Shown here piece after piece: positions 2,980 to 62,760 of a DNA stretch of 64,000 nt. Source of the DNA: Escherichia phage vB_Eco_F26; the sequence record OP870145.1; one strand, given 5' to 3'. The position numbers were made by a program, and so were the translations under genes. Position 1 is the first letter of the stretch. Each line of letters starts with the position of its first letter. Under the pieces are notes generated by a model that had not been told where the DNA came from, searched no databases, and saw only the letters and a list, made by a program, of their open reading frames with translations.

Positions 2980-3778
2980 TATACACCTCATAGAACTTTT
3001 CATCAGGAATCCAACCGCGTTTAAATTCATTAAATGCTCGGCCGAATAATTTTGAATTCACAGTTATATTATTAACTGATTTCCATTTAGCAACTCCTGT
3101 TCGTTTATAATGATCGGGGTCATATTTCGTGACGTACCATTCATATAAATTTGGTATTAATTTTACAGCCTCTGGATTTGTCGCTGATTTATTATACCAT
3201 GGTTTCGCTTTTTCAAGTTCAGCTGCTTTTGCAGTAGCAGCAACAGTATTTCCAATACCAACTAATTTTTCAGCTTTAATGCGTGGATCATTAACATGAA
3301 GACGAAAAACTTCGCCCTTTTCATTTTTAAAGCATGTCATGCCTTTAATTCCAGGAAGCTTAACACCTTTATTAACACCGCACCATTCCTTTGGGTTAAA
3401 TGATCCTTTAATTAATAAGGCGCATTTACCCGATTTAATACTTCTCATTAAAACTTTATCTTTCATAAAGTTTTTTGACCATTCAGATACTGCTCTTTGA
3501 TGGTAAATTCTAGCAATTTCATATAATTTACTAGAACGTAAATATTTTTCAGTGTTTAACATTCTATTCATCGCATATGCCATTTCACGATTACGATGAA
3601 TTTTATATAGTAGAAAATGTGCTAAAAAGTGTTCACGAAAAGTCAGTTTCACCAAATTTTCTTTATCATCAGAACCTCCCATTGATCTTGGAAGGATATG
3701 ATGAATTTCACCCTTAAATTTAGAAACGCGGGTTTTACCCCGCACTATTAAGTCATTATAGATTTTTTCGTAATTCAC
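2960..3778 (-). mobile_element. mobA: HNH homing endonuclease gene (272 aa), mobA-like, inserted between gene 39 and gene 60
   Basis: HNH motif EIHHILPRSMGGSDDKENLVKLTFREHFLAHF; overlaps start of gene 60 and end of gene 39. Confidence 0.75.
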
Positions 3779-5306
3779 CTACTGTTATCCATTTACCATT
3801 AATCTGTACTTCATCATTTTCATTTACGATAATTGTATCGCCATTTAGTTCGAAAGTAAACCACTCGCCATCTTCTTTTTCTTCAAATGCCTTTTCACCG
3901 AGAACTAATCCAGTGATTGCGCAAATATCAAACAGTTCTTTGTTTTTAAGCATATCAGCATATGACATACCCCAGCTATTAAGAACTTTACCGCGCAATG
4001 GATAACCACCATGAAATTCTTTATCACGAACATCAATAAGATATCCGATAGCGGAATCACCCTCAGTCAAGAAAAGAGTAGTGTCAGCATCTTTACCACA
4101 AAGATTCGCTTTAATATGTTTATGAACCTTAGCTTTAGAAGCCTTTTTAGCTGCTTTAGTTTCTGCTGCTTTTTCTGCCGCCAATTTACGAGCCAAGGCA
4201 GCTTCAATGATTGGCATTAAAATTGCTTCATTATTCAAAATAGCACGTGAAATCTTTTTAGCATCAAGCTGAATATGACTACGGATTTCACCAAATGGAG
4301 AAGTCAAACGCTCTTTAGTTTGAGAATCAAATCGCATGTTTTTCATATCACGAACAAACATAACGATAGTCAAACATTCTTTAACACGTGCTTTAGTTAC
4401 ATCAATTTTGAATTTACGTTTGATTTGTGGAATAAGGTCTTCACAAATATCATCCATAACGCAGTCAATGTGATGGCCACCATTCTTAGTATGAATGTTA
4501 TTGACGTATGTTAATTGACGAAAACCATCAGGTGAACGACCAACCGCAATAGAACAGTTTTCTTGTTCTTGAACGATAGCATGTTCATCATATTGGCGTG
4601 CATATTTCTTGAAATTACCCTGAACCTTTTTACCATTAAAGGTAAATTGAATATCAGGATAAACTACTGCAAGTGTCTGGAGACGATCTAATGTAATGTC
4701 AAGATAAACTTGGGACAGCTCATTAGTTTCAAATGACATAAAATCAGGAATGAAAGTAACACGAGTTCCTTTCCATTTTCCTGGAATAGTTTCCCATGAT
4801 TTATTTTCCATGCCGTTTGAACAACGAACTACAATATTATTTTGACCATCGCCAGTTTCACCGACAAACATCACAGAAAAAATGTTTGTCAAACTAGAAC
4901 CAACACCATTCATACCGCCAGTGACGCGTTCTTTATCATCACCGAAGTTACCACCTGCTTTTGGAATAGTCCATGCAGCAACAGGACCAGGAATTTCTTC
5001 ACCGGTAGGTGTTTTAACCATCGCCTGTGGAATACCGCGACCGTTATCTTCAACTGTTACTTGATTGTTTTTAATAGTAACATTAATTTTATTTGCGAAT
5101 TTAAACTTAGTACGAATACCTTCATCTACTGAGTTATCGATAATTTCATCAATAAGCTTAACAAGACCAGGTACATACTGAACACTTTCCCATTTACCAA
5201 ACAGAAAGCGCTCATGCATTTCATTAGCAGAAGAGCCAATGTACATGCCGCTACGCTTTTTGATATGTTCAATATCGCTCAGAATTTTAATTTCATTCTT
5301 AATCAT
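3756..5306 (-). CDS. 39: DNA topoisomerase II large subunit, ATPase + Toprim part (gp39, about 516 aa from ATG at 5306)
   Basis: GyrB-like GHKL N-box (DEIIDNSVDEGI) and Toprim EGDSA motif (FLTEGDSA); ORF track starts at GTG 5309, ATG at 5306. Confidence 0.9.
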   Translation of the reverse strand: MIKNEIKILSDIEHIKKRSGMYIGSSANEMHERFLFGKWESVQYVPGLVKLIDEIIDNSVDEGIRTKFKFANKINVTIKNNQVTVEDNGRGIPQAMVKTPTGEEIPGPVAAWTIPKAGGNFGDDKERVTGGMNGVGSSLTNIFSVMFVGETGDGQNNIVVRCSNGMENKSWETIPGKWKGTRVTFIPDFMSFETNELSQVYLDITLDRLQTLAVVYPDIQFTFNGKKVQGNFKKYARQYDEHAIVQEQENCSIAVGRSPDGFRQLTYVNNIHTKNGGHHIDCVMDDICEDLIPQIKRKFKIDVTKARVKECLTIVMFVRDMKNMRFDSQTKERLTSPFGEIRSHIQLDAKKISRAILNNEAILMPIIEAALARKLAAEKAAETKAAKKASKAKVHKHIKANLCGKDADTTLFLTEGDSAIGYLIDVRDKEFHGGYPLRGKVLNSWGMSYADMLKNKELFDICAITGLVLGEKAFEEKEDGEWFTFELNGDTIIVNENDEVQINGKWITVGELRKNL

Positions 5307-11862: not shown

Positions 11863-11891
11863 ATTTTTCTCACGGACGGTTAACTACTTAT

Positions 11892-11921
11892 ACTATATCA
11901 TTTTTACTTCAGCTTGTAAAC
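11892..11921 (-). promoter_or_regulatory. T4-type early promoter (GTTTAC-N18-TATAGT)
   Basis: Minus-strand GTTTAC 11916-11921, -10 11892-11897. Confidence 0.5.
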
Positions 11922-11977: not shown

Positions 11978-12580
11978 TTATAGATTAAATCCTTCAAAAT
12001 CAAGAGTATAGATAGTGTATGTTGAATACTTTTTATACTCATATCTATCCGCAATTCTAAATACACTTCCAGCTGGTATCATTACTTCTTGTTCATCTGA
12101 AACTAATTCCATATTACGATAGCGATGGCTATCCGGAAACTTAAAACTTGGACTGTATTCTTTACAACGTAGAGCTTTTATAGCATACTCCTGAAAATTA
12201 AATACCATAGGAGCTTTGAATTCAAAAATAACTTGCGTGTTGTATTCTAATCCAGAAGCAAAATGCAGAGCTATATTTTTATCATATGAAGCTGATACTA
12301 CTTTATCAAATGTAATAATATCAATTCCTTGATTTAACACCTGCTTAGTCTCAACTGGAACACCTCTCCAAAGAGGTTTATCGTTTGGAACCAAACGAGA
12401 TTTGATTATTTCATTTAACCAAGAATGATCGTCTGGCTTATTAGTAATACAATGAATTAAAAGTTCAATTTCAGATAAATTAAACCCTTCAGAAAGTAAT
12501 TCTTCACGAATAGAAGCACGCACAGATGCATCCATTGATTTTATTTTAAAATCTTTTAGTTGCATTACTGAGTATTTCAT
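11978..12580 (-). CDS. modA: ADP-ribosyltransferase ModA-like (200 aa)
   Basis: 200 aa, tandem with 207-aa paralog; matches T4 ModA/ModB lengths and locus. Confidence 0.65.
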   Translation of the reverse strand: MKYSVMQLKDFKIKSMDASVRASIREELLSEGFNLSEIELLIHCITNKPDDHSWLNEIIKSRLVPNDKPLWRGVPVETKQVLNQGIDIITFDKVVSASYDKNIALHFASGLEYNTQVIFEFKAPMVFNFQEYAIKALRCKEYSPSFKFPDSHRYRNMELVSDEQEVMIPAGSVFRIADRYEYKKYSTYTIYTLDFEGFNL

Positions 12581-13200
12581 TCAACTACCTCAATATCATA
12601 AACTTTAAATGTTCCAAATGAATCGTGTAATTTTTCTTTTGAAATAGAAGTTATTTTATACTTTCCAATTGGAATCATCCATTCTTGTTCACGCACAATC
12701 ATCATTAAGTTATCAGTACGCTCTGAATCTAGCCCATCAGTATCTTCATACGTGTACTTGAACTCAGTATTAGGAGAAGAAAGTATAATATCGCTGATAT
12801 GGTCAGAATAATTAAAAGCTTTATCAGTTTTTAAGCGAAATATTATTTCAGTGAAATACTCAACATAAGAAAAACCACATGCTGTGTGCAAACTAGTAGT
12901 AAATGAATCTACCCTGTTCGTTGAAAACACCTCTCCAACTTGTAAATCTTTAATGAGTTCTTTTGTCGATTTTGATATACCACGATATAGCTGATAAGGT
13001 GATTTAGTTAAATGCTTTTTAACGATTTTATTCAACTGCTGATGAAGAGCTTCATTCTTTTTGGCTTCCATACATTGCCAAAGAATTGACTGTTCAAAGT
13101 CAGTAAATTTTTCACAGACCTTTTTATACATATCATATTGAAAATCAACACTTTCAGCTTTTATAGATAACTGTTCAACATCTGCAAGATTAATAATCAT
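12577..13200 (-). CDS. modB: ADP-ribosyltransferase ModB-like (207 aa)
   Basis: Paralog of preceding ORF; 4-nt overlap. Confidence 0.65.
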   Translation of the reverse strand: MIINLADVEQLSIKAESVDFQYDMYKKVCEKFTDFEQSILWQCMEAKKNEALHQQLNKIVKKHLTKSPYQLYRGISKSTKELIKDLQVGEVFSTNRVDSFTTSLHTACGFSYVEYFTEIIFRLKTDKAFNYSDHISDIILSSPNTEFKYTYEDTDGLDSERTDNLMMIVREQEWMIPIGKYKITSISKEKLHDSFGTFKVYDIEVVE

Positions 13201-13226
13201 GATAGCCTCCGTATACTTCAGAAGCT

Positions 13227-13256
13227 ATCATATCATCGTTAGAAAGGAAAGTAAAC
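13227..13256 (-). promoter_or_regulatory. T4-type early promoter (GTTTAC-N18-TATGAT)
   Basis: Minus-strand GTTTAC 13251-13256, -10 13227-13232. Confidence 0.5.
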
Positions 13257-16360: not shown

Positions 16361-16850
16361 AATTATGTTTATTTTTCAAATAATAAAGTTTAAAGATTTC
16401 TTCCGCATTCATTCCAAGGCCAGCAAACATATTTAATACGAAATGAAATATATCCACAAGCTCAAATTTAATTTCGAGCTGATCTTCTGGGGACATTTCA
16501 TCAATGCGTTTTTCTTGCGCTTCAATATAACGTGCTTTCCATTTTTTCCAAACTGCCGATGCATCTTTTTCACCACGTGACATTTCACCAAGAGAAGTCA
16601 GAAGTTCGCGGAATTCATCATCAATACAGTCTTTTTGTTCACGCATCCAAGAAACAACATCACCGGCAGTTTCTAATTTATCTGGATGATAACAGTATTC
16701 GCGGTCATTTGCTAAACGAATCTGTAAAGATTTCTGCATATCAAGCATTACCTGCAGCGGGTCTTTTTCATCACCGAGAATATCCCAATATTCATTTTGA
16801 GCTTTATCAGCGCCTTCGATCAGTTGACTACATTCGTTGAAATGTGGCAT
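16335..16850 (-). CDS. 56: dCTP pyrophosphatase (dCTPase/dUTPase, MazG-like), 171 aa
   Basis: 171 aa; locus and length match T4 gp56. Confidence 0.8.
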   Translation of the reverse strand: MPHFNECSQLIEGADKAQNEYWDILGDEKDPLQVMLDMQKSLQIRLANDREYCYHPDKLETAGDVVSWMREQKDCIDDEFRELLTSLGEMSRGEKDASAVWKKWKARYIEAQEKRIDEMSPEDQLEIKFELVDIFHFVLNMFAGLGMNAEEIFKLYYLKNKHNFERQDNGY

Positions 16851-16923
16851 GTTATTTTTCCTTTCAATTCATGGGTTAGTAGATTAATTATACAATAAAT
16901 ATATAAAGCAATAAGGAGGACAT

Positions 16924-17124
16924 ATGGTACAAAAATTAATGGCACTTGTTAATGCCATAAAAGGTAATAAGAAACGTATAGCTTTTACTATTACTGCTAT
17001 GATAGGAATTTTACTTTGGAATTTTGTTTTATCGCCAGTTGCTATTGCTCATGGCGTTAGTATTCCAGTAGTTACTCTTGATACATTCGTAGATTTAGCA
17101 TTTGCTTTAGTTGGGTTAATTTAA
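16924..17124 (+). CDS. small hydrophobic protein (66 aa), plus strand
   Basis: Strong SD AAGGAGGA 4 nt before ATG; two predicted TM segments; only convincing plus-strand ORF in window. Confidence 0.4.
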   Translation: MVQKLMALVNAIKGNKKRIAFTITAMIGILLWNFVLSPVAIAHGVSIPVVTLDTFVDLAFALVGLI

Positions 17125-18149
17125 ATCTTAGCATATTTAGATAGCCGCATTTTAGCCATTAACCCCTGGGCAATATTATTTTTCATATATTCCATAATTT
17201 GTTCAGGGGTTGCACCTTCCTTTCTAATCATATCATTAACATCTTTTGATTTCCAGGGAGATTTATCCCAAAACATAACCCTTTCTCCTGCATCAACTAA
17301 TTTAGTCATTCGTTTAATAGTGTCAGGGTGACGAGGTTCATTATCTAAAACCCACACTCGTCTATCTTTAAATGGAACAACTTCTAGGTCTAATTGACCA
17401 CCCGTAATAGCTATACCATTTTCAATAAAAAGTGAATCTATAGGTCCTTCTAGAACATATACATCACCATCTTTAACTCGTTCGACTCCATAAATTTTTG
17501 TTGCTTCAGGATAAGCTTTGATGGTGATATATTTTTGAGGAGCATCTTTCTTTAATGCACGTCCTTGAAACGACTCAGCTTTTCCATTAGCATTATAAAT
17601 TGGAATAACAAGACGAGGCTCAGAAATTTCCTTTTTATATGTTCCCGGTGCTATGCTATTAACTAATTTAGGCCATTCGGTTGTAAACCAAAGATATTTC
17701 CATTTATCCTTTGGAATACAACGAGCTTTTACATATTTTATAATTGGATGGTCTTCCGCCAGTTTATCTAATCTAACACATGACGGAAGAGATTTAATTA
17801 TTTTCTTCTCAGGTTGTTTAGGAAGTTCTTTAGGTTTTTCTACTGGACGACTTTTACCTTTTTCTTTTCTTATTTCAAAGATATACTCACGATATAAATC
17901 AGGTTCAAACTCCTTTAAATATATTCCGATTGGTGCATGATAGTTACAGTTATAACAATGAATATTTCCTTCATTATTATCACCATAATACCATCCACGG
18001 GCTTTATTCTGGTCGGTTTTTGAATCTCCACAAACTGGGCATCTAAACCGTAATTTAAAAGTTGAACTATTATTTACTTGTGTGAATTTAGGTAAATGAG
18101 CTAATGCACGGTATGCAAACTCATTATCAATCCAAGGTATTGATGACAT
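17121..18149 (-). CDS. 61: DNA primase (342 aa)
   Basis: Zinc ribbon CPVCGDS...CYNC plus Toprim region; 342 aa as T4 gp61. Confidence 0.9.
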   Translation of the reverse strand: MSSIPWIDNEFAYRALAHLPKFTQVNNSSTFKLRFRCPVCGDSKTDQNKARGWYYGDNNEGNIHCYNCNYHAPIGIYLKEFEPDLYREYIFEIRKEKGKSRPVEKPKELPKQPEKKIIKSLPSCVRLDKLAEDHPIIKYVKARCIPKDKWKYLWFTTEWPKLVNSIAPGTYKKEISEPRLVIPIYNANGKAESFQGRALKKDAPQKYITIKAYPEATKIYGVERVKDGDVYVLEGPIDSLFIENGIAITGGQLDLEVVPFKDRRVWVLDNEPRHPDTIKRMTKLVDAGERVMFWDKSPWKSKDVNDMIRKEGATPEQIMEYMKNNIAQGLMAKMRLSKYAKI

Positions 18150-18317: not shown

Positions 18318-18674
18318 TTAACCTCTATTCATAAAAGCATTAAAAATTTGGTCATCAATAGATGGTGCAGTAATATTTTCTGCATCATTTAGCAAATCAT
18401 TAATTTCATCAGATAGCATAACACATGTACCTTTATTTCCTGTAATTGTTACTGCGCAATTACGAACGTTTTCTTTATTAAATTTTAGGTTAATATTTTC
18501 GTAATGAAAATCCTTTAATGCCGAATAAATCTTTAAAATGAAATTGTCTTTTACTACAATAAACCCAACCTCGCTATTAAAACGTGGTTCATGGAAACTG
18601 TAATAAACCTTTTCATCTATAAAATCGTATGAAATTTTTTCCATTTTTAAATATGAAAATTCAGAACTATGCAT
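18318..18674 (-). CDS. hypothetical protein (118 aa), 61.2-like
   Basis: ORF. Confidence 0.45.
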   Translation of the reverse strand: MHSSEFSYLKMEKISYDFIDEKVYYSFHEPRFNSEVGFIVVKDNFILKIYSALKDFHYENINLKFNKENVRNCAVTITGNKGTCVMLSDEINDLLNDAENITAPSIDDQIFNAFMNRG

Positions 18675-22574: not shown

Positions 22575-23423
22575 TTAATCAACTGCTATTGGATGAATAG
22601 CATTAAACTTATGAAATGCTTCTGATTTTTCTTTACGAGAAACACACATGCGAAGAACCTTTAATGGCTCGTCTTCTTCACCCAACGATTTTCGTTTTTC
22701 AATATTAGAAGTTTTCCAACGAGCTTGCTCTGGAAACTCTCTATTGATTTGTTCAAGCGCTCTATTATGTTTAGAATTACTACGAATTGAACTGCACCCG
22801 CCGGGAGCGTGTGATTTTCCAGATACAACTAGATATTTGAACAAGGCCAAATGCGGATAACCTTGATTAATTAAATTGAGAAATGCATACATATCTTCAC
22901 ATAAATCAATTTTTCCATACCCAATTTGTTCTGTCGTAAGTTTTCCGAGGTCATACCATGTATTCGTGAATCCATATGAGTTTTCACGATAATTACCCCA
23001 AGATGAAGTAATTTTAAAAATTGGTAGACGAGCATGACCGTGATAATACCCGCAATCCATAGCATCCTCAACGTATTGAATTAATTCATAGAACTGTTCA
23101 CGAGTTAATTGATTAATTTTATCTACGCGCCGTTTATCGTCTCTCTTTCGTATTGAACTCATACGAATAGTAGTATCATCATCAATCATCCAGATTCGTT
23201 GACCTGCATACATATCAGTAATTGCTTTACGAGTACCGGCAATTCCATTAACATCATCAGGAATAGTTACAATTTTAGCTCTAGACCCATAAGCATCATA
23301 ATAAGCTTTTTCTTCGTGTTCACGCACTACAATATGTGGTTCATAATCAGTCGGAAACATATCAAGGGCAGAAACTGCCCCGACACGCTGATAACTTGGA
23401 ATTACGAATTGAATCATTTCCAC
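22575..23423 (-). CDS. GT-A fold glycosyltransferase (282 aa) at the beta-glucosyltransferase locus
   Basis: FVIPSYQR N-terminal strand and DxD motif (IWMIDDDTT) typical of GT-A/GT2-like enzymes; lies between uvsX and gene 42. Confidence 0.55.
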   Translation of the reverse strand: MEMIQFVIPSYQRVGAVSALDMFPTDYEPHIVVREHEEKAYYDAYGSRAKIVTIPDDVNGIAGTRKAITDMYAGQRIWMIDDDTTIRMSSIRKRDDKRRVDKINQLTREQFYELIQYVEDAMDCGYYHGHARLPIFKITSSWGNYRENSYGFTNTWYDLGKLTTEQIGYGKIDLCEDMYAFLNLINQGYPHLALFKYLVVSGKSHAPGGCSSIRSNSKHNRALEQINREFPEQARWKTSNIEKRKSLGEEDEPLKVLRMCVSRKEKSEAFHKFNAIHPIAVD

Positions 23424-33185: not shown

Positions 33186-34040
33186 TCACAATGAAGAAAA
33201 TTCTTTAACTAAAGCCTGTAATGAAGCCTCTATTGGATATCCATTCTTAACTAACATTTTCCTAAACATCACATGTTTAGGACGATTATATGATATCCAC
33301 AATTCATACAATTTATCTTTATTATCCCAATGATAGCCTTTTCGTCGAGATGCTATATGAGCTTTTCTAATCTCCGGATTTTTCCAACTAGCAGCTACTG
33401 AATTTGATATAGCTATTTTATATTCAGGTTTTGATAAAGCAGCACGAACAGCCTTTTGGTGTTTAATTTTATTTTCTTCGTTATTAAACCATTCCCTTGA
33501 AGCCATTGAAATTTTTTGTTTTGTTTTAAAATTATTTAATCTTTCTTTGTTATCTTTCCTATTTTTTGCTACTGAAAAATATTTTAATGCCCTTTCTCTA
33601 GCAGCATTTCTATTTTGCGGATTTGAATAATATTGTTGAAGCCTTTTTGATATTGTGTCACTTACATCTTGTTTTATAAAACTATATTCAGCAGCTATTA
33701 AATCAACTTCGGCTAAAGATAAATTTTTATATGTTTTTCCTGACATCATTCTATTTAAAGCATTTAGCATTTTTCCATTTTTACCTTTTGCTAATAAGAA
33801 ATGTGCTTTAAAATGATTAAAATGACTTAAATTAACTAAATTCCATGTAGATTTTAAATATTCAGGAAATATTGATTTAGGAAGCACGTGATGTGCTTCC
33901 GTTTTACCTGGAGTTTTAACAGTTGAATTCATAGAAATAAAATTAATATAAGACTTGGCGTCTTCTTCACTCAACGCTAATTTTTCAACTAATTCCTTTA
34001 TTAAAAATTCATCATTAAGGTCAAGTTTAAAATTCTTCAC
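33186..34040 (-). mobile_element. HNH homing endonuclease (284 aa) inserted between genes 46 and 47
   Basis: HNH motif EAHHVLPKS...NLVNLSHFNHFKAHF; basic C-terminal DNA-binding repeats. Confidence 0.7.
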
Positions 34041-34487: not shown

Positions 34488-35503
34488 TGTGTTGCCTCTA
34501 CATATAGCTGATTTGCATATTGAATAAGTGCTTCACGATCAGAATCAGTGATGTCTGGAATTGCATTAATGTATTCTTCCATCAACGTCTGAAGAGATTG
34601 AACTTCAACTTCTTCACTGTCATCTGACTCGACAGAGTTATCAATCTTTGACACAACTCGTAATGAATGCACAACTTTTTCTAGTTCAGATTCGAACTTC
34701 GTTAGATTTTTGTCTACTTCAGTTACTATAACACGTACTGATAGATTTGTAAAATCTTTATAGTCAATTTTTCCTTTAAATGGATAATGAATTCTACGAT
34801 GCCAGGTAGTGTTGTTTGGAATAAATTCCATTCGTTCTGTTTCTGTATCAAACATCCAGAACCCACGAGGGTCATTCTCGTCACCTGCAGTTAGTGTCCA
34901 TGGTGTCCCAATATATCTGACGTTAGCAGCCTCAGAGATAGTATGGAAGTGACCAGACCACACTTCTTTATAAGTCTTAAGGAAATCAGGTTCAAGACCG
35001 TGAGATTTCATTCCTTTATAAAAATAAAATCCGTTCAGTTCCCAGTGACCAACACAAAAAGAAGCAGATGAAGTTTTGATGTGTTCAAGAATTTCACCAG
35101 TATTTTCTTCACACATCCAAGGAATCAAATCAATCAAACACCCGTCAAAATCTACTGTAGTAGGCTTATCATATACTTTAACATTAGGATATTTAGCCAA
35201 AAGCTCAGTAGAGGCATTTGGATGCATTACATTTTTATAGTGGAGATCGTGATTTCCTACAATAGTGTGTAATGTAATTCCAGCATCATCAAGCGTTTGA
35301 ACTATTTCACGGGCAAACTCCATAGTTTTATGTGTGATCGCTTTTCTCACATCAAAAATATCACCATATTGAATCCAGGTAGTAATTCCATTTTTCTTAG
35401 AATATTCTATTGCTTGTTTAATTCCATCAATTTGAATACCGCGAATCCACTCATCATCAGCTTTAACGCCTAAATGCCAATCACCCAAGTTTAGTATTTT
35501 CAT
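34484..35503 (-). CDS. 47: recombination nuclease subunit gp47 (Mre11/SbcD-like), 339 aa
   Basis: Calcineurin-like phosphoesterase motifs GDWHLG, GNHD; 339 aa. Confidence 0.9.
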   Translation of the reverse strand: MKILNLGDWHLGVKADDEWIRGIQIDGIKQAIEYSKKNGITTWIQYGDIFDVRKAITHKTMEFAREIVQTLDDAGITLHTIVGNHDLHYKNVMHPNASTELLAKYPNVKVYDKPTTVDFDGCLIDLIPWMCEENTGEILEHIKTSSASFCVGHWELNGFYFYKGMKSHGLEPDFLKTYKEVWSGHFHTISEAANVRYIGTPWTLTAGDENDPRGFWMFDTETERMEFIPNNTTWHRRIHYPFKGKIDYKDFTNLSVRVIVTEVDKNLTKFESELEKVVHSLRVVSKIDNSVESDDSEEVEVQSLQTLMEEYINAIPDITDSDREALIQYANQLYVEATQ

Positions 35504-36104
35504 GGTGTCTTTTCCATCCTAATTTAGCTGCTTTTGAAACTAGTTCTTTAATTTTTCCTTTTGTCCATTCAGGACCAGGAGGTTCATGACATAACATTTG
35601 CTTAACTCCGTTATTATACCATTTTTTACCTTTATTATGTGATGAAGCTTTAAATTTATTTGACCTTCCTTTTACATAACCTTCTGGAATATAAGGCAAA
35701 AAGGCAGATTTTCCTGTTAATGGATCATGTGAATGTATATTTCCTTTACAATTATGAGAACCATATAATGGATGATTTTGTCCTTTGTTATCTCTTCCAA
35801 ATGAACCTTTTGGAGCAGCATATGACATATTAAAGAATAATGGATTTTTAACTGCATCATGCAATCGTTGATAATATAACTCGCATTTAATAGCTTCTTC
35901 ACGCGTATCAAATTCAGCTAAAATGCATGAATCAAATAAGTGAGGATTATCTGAAAGCTCTTTATTATAAATTTTCTTATACTTTTTAGATAAAACTGAA
36001 CCATGATATCCAGCTAAATGCCTATCTAAAGACGTAGATCCAATATAAAAAGGAGGAAGTTTATCTCCACTATATATTGTTAAATAAGTTATATATTTTT
36101 TCAT
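35481..36104 (-). mobile_element. GIY-YIG-like endonuclease (207 aa) between gene 47 and alpha-gt
   Basis: N-terminal YITYL...PPFYIGSTS (GIY-YIG-like), NUMOD3-like repeats (NHPLYGSHN). Confidence 0.5.
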
Positions 36105-41812: not shown

Positions 41813-42283
41813 TTAATCATGTTTCCACACCCCATCGGTATTTGACCAAAGCCGCTGATTATCTGATCCTCTCCACAGCTTTTTAGTCGGAAGATTTTTC
41901 TCATACTTCCCATCAATAATAACATCAACATATTTAAGCATTTCTAGTTGTTTAATATCTTCAAACTTATATCCTGTCCACAACCAAATGCTTTTATTGG
42001 GATAAAGATTTTTTACTGTTTGAACGATGCAATGAATCACGTCTCTGTTATCAGGATAAAGAGGGTCACCTCCGGTTATAGTTAATCCTTCTATATAATC
42101 ATTATTCAAACATTCAATTAATTGTTCTAGTGTTTCACCAGTGAATGGAACGCCATTTCTAGCATTCCATGTTGATTTATTATAACACCCTTCGCATTTA
42201 TGCAAACAACCTGTAACGAAAAGAACGGTCCTGCATCCAGGACCATTAACAAAGCAGCACGGGTATATTCTGTCATAATTCAT
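41813..42283 (-). CDS. nrdG: anaerobic ribonucleotide reductase activating protein, radical SAM (156 aa from MNYDRIYP)
   Basis: Radical-SAM cysteine cluster CLHKCEGC. Confidence 0.8.
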   Translation of the reverse strand: MNYDRIYPCCFVNGPGCRTVLFVTGCLHKCEGCYNKSTWNARNGVPFTGETLEQLIECLNNDYIEGLTITGGDPLYPDNRDVIHCIVQTVKNLYPNKSIWLWTGYKFEDIKQLEMLKYVDVIIDGKYEKNLPTKKLWRGSDNQRLWSNTDGVWKHD

Positions 42284-43110
42284 AATAATATCCAATTTTT
42301 CCAAGCTTCATCAGTAGAATTACAGCGTTTTAGTATAAGATGTCTAGAAACTTTTATGGCATTTGAGCACTTTTTAATTGAATCATATTTAATACCGTCA
42401 ACTGAAACGGTTTTGCTAGTTGGAGAAATTTTTCCATACATTGGATTTTTTGAACCAACTTGAAGTCCTTTTAAAGCTTTTGAAAGCTTTTGTCTAGATT
42501 CCAATGACATGGGAGAATTCTTTTTACCTTCAATAATTCGCTTGCGATGAAGTTCGCGTTCTTCTTCACTCAAAGAATTGTAATATTTTTTAACACCGTT
42601 TGATATAGATAATTTATCTTTCTCAGACCGCTCTCCAGCTAATTTACTTCTAACATCTTTTCGCTTCATAGCTATGCTTACAGCTTTATTTAAATTTGCT
42701 TGATGCTCTGGCGTACGTTTATATTTCTTTAAAGCACGTGAAATAGCTATTTTAGTTTCTTCTGTTCTCTTTTTACCTTTATTTGCTAAACTATTTTTGC
42801 GGCGATGCTCAAGTGTCTGTTCATAGGCAGTTCCACCTTTTCCACCAGGTTTAATATTATATGTGTTTTCTTTTAGACAATACTCTTCGGTTACAAGTTC
42901 AGCTTCTTTATCATACATTTGTTTTTCATTATCAAAAACATGTAAAATTTCTTTATTAAAATTTTTTCTACCATATTTTAATAAAGCGGCACGAATCAAT
43001 GTTCCTGATCCCATATAACCGTCATTTATGTTATCGGTGCTATGCGCACCGATATATTCCTTTGAATTAATTATATTTGTTATTTTATAAATTATATAAT
43101 ACCTATGCAT
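42280..43110 (-). mobile_element. GIY-YIG homing endonuclease (276 aa) between nrdG and nrdD
   Basis: N-terminal YYIIYKITN...KEYIGAHS motif; basic C-terminal region. Confidence 0.65.
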
Positions 43111-44434: not shown

Positions 44435-45430
44435 AATTTGGATAGTCCATAGATATGCAACGTTCTTTTATAGCGCTAGGATGAAAATTTAGCGCTTTAG
44501 CTGCTTCTATATAAGACGTATACTTAATACCGTCAACAACCACATATTCAGGAACTTTATGAATAGTAGTCTTAATACTCAAAACAAGAGGATGAGTTTC
44601 GACTTCACTTTCAGTGCAATTTAAATATTCCGCTGCTTTTTTAAAACTTCTAAAAGTTTTATTTTTAAGCTTTATCGATACTTGTTTTTTACTTTTTCGA
44701 CTATTGATATTATTTTGCACATGTTCCTTAGATCTTCCGTTTTTAGCATAATATTCAGCTACAGAAGATTTTATATTGTTTTTATGAGATTCGGATAACA
44801 CTTTACCCTTATGAGCATCTCTTAATTTTTGAATATGTTCTTCAGTATCCGGATGCTTATAAAACTTTTTACCGCCTATGGATTTATTTAAACATTTTTT
44901 GCTATAAAAATATTTACGTATGACCTCTTCTTCATGTTTTAATGCATCTTTATAACTATCAAATGTTTTTAAAATTATCCATTTAGTAGGTGTATCAGTT
45001 TTTAAGCGTTCATTTATATACTTAGATGACGTTGTGTAAGTTTTCCAGTTTGTGGGCTTGTTTTTAATTGTTCTAAATTTTTTATAACCGATATAAATGT
45101 CGCCATTAGAAAACTTAACTAAGTATGTAAATGCGTCTTTATCTTTTATTTTAGTACAACGTCTTTTTATCCATTTCATTGTTTCACCTCGTATTCATAA
45201 GATAATCTTATTTATACAAGATGACTGCTGCATGTCGCCATGCAGATTAGACTATATCTTCATCTTTCGATGCCGGCCGTTTCGAATAGCATTAGCTTCT
45301 ATTCTACACCGCTACATTCATCACGGTTAGTCGTTAGGCATTTAGTTCAAAAGAACATTTAGCACGGGATTGTCTACTAGAGAGGTTCCCCGTTTAGACC
45401 GGTTTTACATGAGCCTGAATTAAATTAACT
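44380..45430 (-). other. group I intron in nrdD (approximate boundaries) carrying an endonuclease ORF
   Basis: nrdD reading frame interrupted by about 1 kb containing a GIY-YIG ORF and 240 nt of non-coding structured sequence (45180-45420); exon lengths sum to about 605 aa only if about 1.0 kb is removed. Confidence 0.6.
44409..45179 (-). mobile_element. intron-encoded GIY-YIG endonuclease (256 aa), I-TevII-like
   Basis: N-terminal FTYLVKFSNGDIYIGYKK motif; located inside nrdD intron. Confidence 0.65.
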
Positions 45431-45965
45431 CATACGCCTGGAATGCATCGTATACGTCTTTTTCTGTTTTAGATTGAGCATAATTCAACGCATCAGCGAT
45501 TTGCCATTTTTCTGCATCCTCAATATGTTTTGCATAGGTGCGTTTAACATAAGGAGAAAGTACTTTATCTACATTCGCAAAAGTCGTTCCGCCGTATTGG
45601 TGAGAAGCAACCTGTGCAGTAATTTGTGCCATAATTGCAGTAGCAACACCGATTGATTTAGGAGTTTCAATCTGTGCATTACCGAGCTTAAATCCGTTCT
45701 CAAGCATTCCTTTTAAATCTACTAAACAGCAATTAGTAAAAGGCAATGATATACTGTAATCTAAATCATGAAAATGAATTAATCCAACATTATGGGCATT
45801 TACAATATGACTTGGAAGAATACGACAAGCGATATGTTTAGAAACAATACCGGCCATTAAATCTCTTTTTGTTGGAAAGACGCGAGAATCTTTGTTGGCG
45901 TTTTCTGTATTTAATTCTTTATCTTTATTTGAAATAAAATTTAAAACATCTTTCTCTAAAGACAT
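45420..45965 (-). CDS. nrdD: anaerobic ribonucleotide reductase NrdD, exon 1 (181 codons in ORF track; last codons may be intronic)
   Basis: N-terminal part of class III RNR, in-frame stop at 45420 inside intron. Confidence 0.7.
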   Translation of the reverse strand: MSLEKDVLNFISNKDKELNTENANKDSRVFPTKRDLMAGIVSKHIACRILPSHIVNAHNVGLIHFHDLDYSISLPFTNCCLVDLKGMLENGFKLGNAQIETPKSIGVATAIMAQITAQVASHQYGGTTFANVDKVLSPYVKRTYAKHIEDAEKWQIADALNYAQSKTEKDVYDAFQAYELI

Positions 45966-46777
45966 AATTCTAATTTATCCTTTTGAAATTCTTCGTCTAA
46001 ATATGGGTTCCAACCCATTTTAAACCTTTTGATGAAATTATCAATTCTAAATTTCGGTAAGTTTAAATCCGCAAAAATAGATGATTTACTTTTAAAATCT
46101 GGACCTAAATAATCATATAAAATTTCTGCGTATTTTAACCATAATATATAAGTACCAGATTTAATTGCTCTCGGAGTTTTCCAAGGTTTTACACCATACA
46201 TCGGATTTCCACTTCCTTTATGCCTGATAGAAGATGAAATTCCAATTTTAATTTTAGCTTCCTTTGTGTGCGAAAATCCATGATGCGGATTTTCTTTCCA
46301 GTATTTTTTAGAAGCTTCTGATATTTTCTTTCTGGCTAAATTAGTATGATGCTTTCCATAAAATCCATGATTTTTACCTTTATTACGATTTCTTTTAATC
46401 ATGGTTATTGATTGCTTTTCTCTAGTTTCTTTAGAAGGAGAAATACCATACGTTGTAAATTGACCGTTAGCATATGCTAAATTGAAATACTCTTTATTCC
46501 ATATATCTTTTTCTATATTCTTTTGAAATTCAGCTTCAATGCTAGTTATTTGTTCATCTCCGACTAATTGAAAATATAATATTTCAACTTTCGGCGTTTC
46601 TTTCAATAGAGCTTTTTGAAATTCAGAAGATGACGAAGACGAATAATAAAATTTACCATTTTTATCAATAATATTCGTTCCATCAAAAGTGCAATTAGTT
46701 TTACTTCCAATGTAATAATATGGCGGGGTTTTAGCATTAATTCTATTAATAAATGATAGTTTATATACTACATTCAT
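45956..46777 (-). mobile_element. GIY-YIG-like endonuclease with NUMOD3 repeats (273 aa) between nrdD and gene 49
   Basis: VVYKL...PPYYYIGSK N-terminus; repeats GKNHGFYGKHHT, HHGFSHTKEAK, GSGNPMYGV. Confidence 0.6.
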
Positions 46778-62093: not shown

Positions 62094-62311
62094 GTCACCT
62101 TTAAGCAGTATTCTTCTACATGCTGTTTACGACCTTTCTTATCAATAAAGGTATATTCAACGAATGTTCCAATGTAGTCTTTATCTACATCATGTGGACT
62201 ATTAATTGGACATTTAGTACGGCAAATGCGTTCCCATTGACGAATAATTACTGCCTTATTCTTTGGGTCATATGGATGTGGATAATGTATATTCATAATA
62301 ATGGTTCCCAA
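62084..62311 (-). CDS. hypothetical protein (75 aa)
   Basis: ORF. Confidence 0.4.
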   Translation of the reverse strand: MGTIIMNIHYPHPYDPKNKAVIIRQWERICRTKCPINSPHDVDKDYIGTFVEYTFIDKKGRKQHVEEYCLKVTWL

Positions 62312-62760
62312 TCAACAATCACAATTTCTAATTTAGAGGAATATGTATCTAAAATCCCCTCAATAATATCCCAGTTTCCTTTACCTATGCCTGCACCAAT
62401 CCTAGGCATATAGATTGTAGGTTTAATCAGTTTATTTTCACCAAACTCATTTAATTCTAACATACAATTCATTAAAGCGGAATATTCAAAATTTGGCCCT
62501 GGTTGAAATTGAGTATAAAGATTAAAGCAGTAAGCTTTATGAGTCCTAAAGTATTTTTCATAGACTGAGTAAGAACCAAGTTTAGTTACATCACCCCATT
62601 CAGTCTGTAATTTATCAGCTTCCAAAATTTTAGGGAAAGCTTTGGTTAATTGACCTGCGACTCCAGCTTTCATCGTATGAAAACAATTGCATCCATGCGC
62701 AATATTTTTACCTTCAGTGAAAAGGGCGACAATATCGCCCTTGATATATTTTACAATCAT
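62293..62760 (-). CDS. macro-domain protein (155 aa), predicted ADP-ribose binding/processing
   Basis: Macro-domain signatures GDIV...NIAHGCNCFHTMKAGVAG and IGAGIGKGNWDII. Confidence 0.55.
   Translation of the reverse strand: MIVKYIKGDIVALFTEGKNIAHGCNCFHTMKAGVAGQLTKAFPKILEADKLQTEWGDVTKLGSYSVYEKYFRTHKAYCFNLYTQFQPGPNFEYSALMNCMLELNEFGENKLIKPTIYMPRIGAGIGKGNWDIIEGILDTYSSKLEIVIVDWEPLL

Follow-up and report, generated by a model that had tools for sequence, protein, structure and literature searches.

The modB-modA pair of predicted arginine-specific ADP-ribosyltransferases in the left arm of a T4-like Escherichia phage genome

The DNA analysed here, referred to below as the window, is a stretch of 64,000 nucleotides from Escherichia phage vB_Eco_F26 (sequence record OP870145.1). 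The features considered at and around the locus of interest are collected in Table 1. A first reading of the letters without database searches (the sequence-only reading) had described two adjacent, overlapping and paralogous open reading frames (ORFs) of 200 and 207 amino acids. Both are present at exactly the coordinates then given and overlap by 4 bp, and their products, named ModA and ModB here after their T4 orthologs, align by BLASTP with 27% identity across 182 amino acids (E 3e-16). A GAGG Shine-Dalgarno sequence, read directly from the DNA, stands 7 nt upstream of the modA ATG; this arrangement, together with the ATGA shared by the modB stop and the modA start, suggests translational coupling of the two genes. 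A Mod-family HMM run over all ORFs of the 64-kb window gave two matches (E 1e-62 and 7e-48), namely the two Mod ORFs, and found no third member of the family there. The ORF listing holds no antisense ORF of at least 40 amino acids inside 11978-13200.

Table 1. Positions of the Mod genes, of the putative expression signals around them, and of the macro-domain gene in the window.
Feature	Position	Strand	Remarks
modB	12577-13200	minus	207 aa, ATG start; predicted arginine-specific mono-ADP-ribosyltransferase and RNAylating enzyme
modA	11978-12580	minus	200 aa, ATG start; predicted arginine-specific mono-ADP-ribosyltransferase
ATGA overlap of modB stop and modA start	12577-12580	minus	read directly: ...GTTGAATGAAAT...
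Putative early-type sigma-70 promoter upstream of modB (GTTTACT, 17-nt spacer, TG-TATGAT)	13227-13255	minus	consensus scan 9/12, extended -10 TG
Predicted RNA hairpin over the modB ribosome-binding site (RBS)	13192-13237	minus	MFE -21.7 kcal/mol, z -4.4, 0/200 shuffles as stable
Putative early-type promoter in the modA-srd spacer (TTTACA, 17-nt spacer, TATAGT, with TG)	11892-11920	minus	consensus scan 10/12
Macro-domain gene, ortholog of T4 tk.4 (adfM)	62293-62760	minus	155 aa; outside the Mod unit

Compared with the T4 genome (NC_000866), the 200-aa protein is identical to ModA at 196 of 200 positions (98%) and the 207-aa protein to ModB at 198 of 207 (96%), in both cases over the full length and without gaps. 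Both also match PHROG 832, 'RNA polymerase ADP-ribosylase' (E 3e-33 for ModA and 7e-42 for ModB). The order of the genes at the locus (dda, dda.1, srd, modA, modB, modA.2, modA.3, modA.4, srh, mrh) is that of T4. Position likewise places the pair in the Mod family: in the early region, it is flanked by srd and modA.2, and modB precedes modA and overlaps it. The earlier assignment to the T4 modA/modB locus is thereby borne out by the identities and by the T4 gene order. The window represents the left arm of a genome of the T4-like genus Tequatrovirus, and the pair is the already known and well-studied modB-modA of this genus, with ordinary allelic variation.

A 1.6-kb query around the pair matched 502 phage records, all but one of which (501/502) cover at least 80% of it at 90-99% identity. 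These records belong almost entirely to T4-like phages of Escherichia, Shigella, Salmonella or Yersinia and, among the matches listed, the corresponding features are annotated as ADP-ribosylases, as modA/modB, or as hypothetical proteins. The ModB protein of the window is public in identical form as GenBank WBF80103.1 (Escherichia phage vB_Eco_F26), and ModA likewise under the name of, for example, phage UGKSEcP1; both exact sequences recur across several phage genomes. The pair of ADP-ribosyltransferases (ARTs) is near-universal in the genus Tequatrovirus; one more T4-like genome with ModA and ModB brings no new biology and confirms a typical Tequatrovirus left arm.

T4 ModA (NP_049635) has the same 200 amino acids in length, the same place between srd and modB, and the same residues R72, S96 and E163-Q-E165; the window protein differs from it by four substitutions (A76V, N143S, N145S and C185Y) that leave the catalytic residues untouched. 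T4 ModB (NP_049636; UniProt P39423) is likewise 207 amino acids long and identical at R73/G74, S99 and E171-Q-E173, and the nine substitutions in the window protein (V39I, K54Q, H55Q, E58K, I60V, S109G, A113V, T119I and L121F), none of them catalytic, cluster at 54-60 and 109-121. None of the 13 substitutions in the two proteins falls on an R-S-EXE residue. At the codon level, modA differs from its T4 counterpart by 19 synonymous and 4 non-synonymous changes, and modB by 15 synonymous and 9 non-synonymous ones; this excess of synonymous differences indicates functional genes under purifying selection. The modest value of the locus lies in this natural allelic variation, since a solved Mod structure would allow the 13 substitutions to be placed on it.

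The catalytic motif was examined across the wider family. An exhaustive HMMER search with a ModA+ModB profile against a library of 1.84 billion representative proteins, at a threshold of E 1e-3, returned merely 58 representatives at or below that value, so that Mod is a narrow family; a word-indexed homolog search found 3 clusters per protein. In a family alignment of 37 diverse Mod proteins, mostly full length and 24-38% identical to the window ModB, the only invariant columns, Met1 aside, are R73, G74, S99, E171 and E173 of ModB, to which R72, G73, S96, E163 and E165 of ModA are equivalent. Judged from the alignment, these invariant residues are the R-S-EXE motif of the R-S-E clade of ARTs. 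Alignment to the R-S-E catalytic residues, which the sequence-only reading had put forward as the check on its ART assignment, thus finds the motif intact in both proteins and invariant across 37 homologs.

Scans of ModA and ModB with our local Pfam-A and NCBIfam libraries gave no relevant match. As these libraries hold no Mod model, the absent match is not evidence against an ART, and the family assignment rests on PHROG 832, the custom alignment, the predicted fold, and orthology. A precomputed Pfam family, PF26816, is listed for homologs in the protein database. Searches of PDB sequences with both proteins returned nothing meaningful, the single match (a designed repeat protein) being spurious.

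The AlphaFold2 (AF2) models of ModA (pLDDT 85, pTM 0.80) and ModB (pLDDT 77, pTM 0.72) predict an ART fold for both proteins, with its split beta-sandwich and NAD-binding cleft. When compared with the PDB by Foldseek, the ModA model matched Certhrax, C3, iota toxin Ia and HopU1, and the ModB model matched iota toxin Ia, C3, CDTa, VIP2 and Vis, all with probability 1.0; Plx2a was also among the top PDB matches of the Mod models. The matches listed (50 per model) are all members of the ART family and almost all toxins of the R-S-E clade, XopAI being an ART-like effector. E-values ranged from about 5e-6 to 1e-4 and TM-scores were moderate (about 0.5), as obtained with predicted structures. The Mod proteins thus have the predicted fold in common with the R-S-E toxins C3 exoenzyme, iota toxin Ia, CDTa, VIP2, Certhrax and Vis, together with the same R / S-x-S-like / E-x-E catalytic arrangement, although the sequence identity between them is only 10-18%. 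Unlike these toxins, they are single-domain proteins of ~200 amino acids, are made by the phage inside the infected host, and have different targets. A third ART of T4, Alt, belongs to the same superfamily, performs the same chemistry, and has Arg265 of the RNA polymerase alpha subunit as a target in common with ModA; unlike the Mod proteins, Alt is a member of the Alt/VIP2 family, is much larger, is packaged in the phage head, and is injected with the DNA.

Taken together, we estimate a probability of about 96% that the pair is the modB-modA early operon of a T4-like phage and that its products are mono-ADP-ribosyltransferases of the R-S-EXE type. What they would do in the cell can be read from experiments on T4. 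T4 ModA ADP-ribosylates RNA polymerase at Arg265 of each of its two alpha subunits, blocks contacts with UP elements and CRP, and is toxic to E. coli (PMC2988021); its E165A variant is inactive in vivo (PMC11404850). T4 ModB modifies components of translation and, with NAD-capped RNA as donor, transfers whole RNA chains onto arginines of S1 and L2; with the double substitution R73A/G74A, S1 is neither ADP-ribosylated nor RNAylated by ModB, and a T4 phage carrying this change has a smaller burst size and delayed lysis (PMC10468400). A recent preprint that cites Tiemann 2004 describes E173 of ModB as essential for activity and R73 as important in binding NAD (bioRxiv 10.1101/2025.07.11.664405).

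Since the window proteins are 96-98% identical to those of T4 and their catalytic residues are intact, orthology allows the same activities and targets to be assigned to them. By analogy with T4, both enzymes would use NAD+ to modify arginines of host proteins soon after infection. ModA would ADP-ribosylate Arg265 of both RNA polymerase alpha subunits, a modification that would disable the contacts with UP elements and activators. ModB would modify S1, L2, EF-Tu and trigger factor and, with an NAD-capped RNA as donor, would probably place whole RNA chains on S1 and L2 (RNAylation). From the T4 orthologs we infer both the NAD-dependent arginine ADP-ribosylation by ModA and ModB and the RNAylation by ModB. 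RNAylating ARTs have no defined sequence signature. The sequence-only reading had named the division of labour in T4 (RNA polymerase alpha versus translation factors) and the link of ModB to RNAylation; its statement that the targets of the orthologs are not evident from sequence was too cautious at this level of identity and with the catalytic residues unchanged. Both ModA and ModB belong to the textbook repertoire of host takeover, and protein RNAylation has ModB as its founding example.

The expression signals at the locus are also closely shared with T4. At the start of modB, 86 nt were compared, of which 71 precede the start codon and the rest are the first five codons; they match T4 at 100% identity, and they contain both the putative promoter and the hairpin over the RBS. 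The modA-srd spacer is 95% identical to T4. Promoter-like sites occur in the scanned region at chance level (18 found versus 17.3 expected from shuffled sequence), so that both promoters are assigned by their position and by identity to T4. In the arrangement that we propose, modB and modA are probably co-transcribed from the early promoter just upstream of modB, and probably coupled in translation via their overlap, while the promoter in the modA-srd spacer would drive srd.

In the predicted hairpin, the modB AUG and its GGAGG Shine-Dalgarno sequence are base-paired with sequence further upstream, and a 14-pair stem was also flagged here in the consensus scan. Since the -10 element of the modB-proximal promoter and the 5' arm of the hairpin overlap, transcripts starting at that promoter would lack this arm and leave the RBS free. 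Read-through transcripts from upstream would carry the whole hairpin, and the modB RBS would then be sequestered. An RBS-sequestering hairpin that is present in upstream transcripts and absent from promoter-proximal ones is a design described for other T4 genes, and we infer from the sequence a similar regulatory role on modB. A difference from T4 was seen directly upstream of the srd start: a deletion of 7 nt (a GATGTGA-type repeat) at 11863-11880 on the minus strand, where the GTGAGAAAAAT-ATG context is kept despite the deletion.

The allelic differences could be taken to mean that the proteins, although orthologs of ModA and ModB, have shifted in target specificity or in their balance between RNAylation and ADP-ribosylation relative to T4. 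Besides the bare count of nine ModB and four ModA substitutions, this idea draws on N143S and N145S of ModA, which fall in a poorly modelled loop (143-147) before the EXE strand, at what we take to be about the position of the substrate-recognising ARTT loop in R-S-E ARTs. We consider it very unlikely: all changes are conservative or lie at variable columns of the family alignment, and R-S-EXE is untouched. The same features of the ModB allele (HxQLNKIV) are found in the representative of a 712-member cluster, and the recurrence of the exact sequences on several phage genomes looks like ordinary variation under purifying selection.

The macro-domain gene near the far end of the window encodes a protein identical to T4 Tk.4 at 152 of 155 positions. 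It passes the Pfam Macro model (PF01661; 25.0 bits, cut-off 22) and reaches 24 bits against the NCBIfam DarG model (NF048014; cut-off 250) in a partial match to the macrodomain part alone; it is a stand-alone macrodomain and not a DarG antitoxin. The nearest solved relatives of the protein are BT1257, Poa1p, OARD1/TARG1 and DarG. Codons 31-32 of the gene differ from T4 (G31K and S32A, turning HTMGSGVAG into HTMKAGVAG), and position 31 aligns with a glycine of the xGxG loop in BT1257 (2FG1) and Poa1p (6LFU). At least 25 public contigs carry exactly this K31/A32 variant, among them those of phages HY03 and vB_EcoM_G8. Macrodomains are not known to cleave the arginine-ADP-ribose linkage; hydrolysis of arginine-linked ADP-ribose is a property of ARH/DraG-type enzymes and not of macrodomains. 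In a DarTG2-expressing host, tk.4 is the single T4 gene required, as confirmed by knockout; it was named adfM, and AdfM was proposed to remove ADP-ribose from DNA (preprint 10.1101/2025.11.20.689424).

A second alternative joins this gene to the Mod pair as writer and eraser, the macrodomain reversing the ADP-ribosylation or RNAylation of proteins by ModA and ModB. Macrodomains are indeed modules that bind or hydrolyse ADP-ribose (Pfam Macro), and modA, modB and tk.4 share a strand within one early region, but tk.4 is 50 kb away from the Mod pair and thus not co-localised with it. A transposon screen and a clean knockout tie tk.4 specifically to resistance against DarTG2, a toxin that ADP-ribosylates thymidine in DNA (10.1101/2025.11.20.689424), and the linkage made by ModB, an arginine N-glycoside, is removed by ARH1 and not by ARH3, hydroxylamine or HgCl2 (PMC10468400). 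The anti-DarTG2 role with its proposed de-ADP-ribosylation of DNA, the ARH-type arginine linkage and the distance of 50 kb make a partnership of Tk.4 with ModA and ModB unlikely, and we consider the writer-eraser relation to be very improbable. The sequence-only reading had allowed that the macro-domain gene might act on the chemistry of the Mod pair as well. The ORF is real, with its Pfam Macro match of 25 bits; 'same chemistry' is only loosely true, as AdfM is proposed to be directed at DNA and the products of ModB are arginine N-glycosides.

There is, in our judgement, a very slim chance that the ModB or ModA allele of the window, or the G31K/S32A variant of Tk.4, has an altered substrate range relative to T4. 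If it were so, for example, a different set of proteins would be RNAylated, or the macrodomain would not counter DarTG2 or would act on another ADP-ribose conjugate, and the phage would be a natural specificity variant.

Tandem Mod genes are a recurrent feature of T4-like phages. Contigs of IMG/VR were scanned with an alignment narrower than the 37-sequence one, and 34 T4-like loci were recovered. Six of these 34, all close relatives, have the same modB-modA tandem, and nine more distant ones carry two adjacent Mod paralogs (loci L026-L032, L035 and L036; at about 3270-4580), of which the upstream copy is more ModB-like and the downstream copy about equally similar to ModA and ModB. The remaining 19 loci have a single Mod gene within 4 kb on either side. 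All Mod copies in the 34 loci carry [L/M][Y/W/F]RG and E-x-E, except a truncated ORF in locus L011 that is without the catalytic Arg motif. Tandem paralogs sometimes degenerate, as the truncated ORF of this distant relative illustrates, but that one of the two Mod copies in the window is a decaying, non-functional duplicate is hardly conceivable, for both ORFs are full length with R-S-EXE intact, their differences from T4 are mostly synonymous, and both T4 orthologs are active on different targets (PMC10468400, PMC2988021, PMC11404850).

The window shows several other differences from T4 outside the Mod locus. At 18318-18674 (minus strand), where T4 has the 208-aa anti-DarT factor AdfA (gene 61.2), a 118-aa protein is encoded that matches the C-terminal half of the Pfam AdfA family (PF23813; 32 bits) and is 34% identical to residues 109-208 of T4 AdfA. 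Judged from its sequence, this short AdfA-like protein may mean that the phage differs from T4 in countering DarTG1. The dam methyltransferase gene of T4 (T4 16846-17625) is absent at the T4 position (16892-16913 of the window), and genes 56 and 61 are about 270 nt apart. At 22575-23423 (minus strand) a beta-glucosyl-HMC-alpha-glucosyltransferase of the T2/T6 type (phrog_842, E 1e-88) replaces segA and the beta-glucosyltransferase of T4, so that glucosylation of the DNA would be of the T2/T6 type and not of the T4 type. Scanning the entire window for Rfam families and for tRNAs gave no matches. An apparently truncated regB at the window edge (a 71-aa ORF) was set aside as an edge artefact, its frame being open to the window end and matching T4 RegB. 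T4 mobB is absent from the window. ORFs for homing endonucleases (HNH and other PHROG homing-endonuclease families) are found, all on the minus strand, at 33186-34040, 35481-36104, 42280-43110 and 45956-46777, the first two at positions that hold none in T4. The nrdG-nrdD region is 81-85% identical to T4, and an ORF for an NrdD fragment (45420-45965) adjoins an endonuclease ORF.
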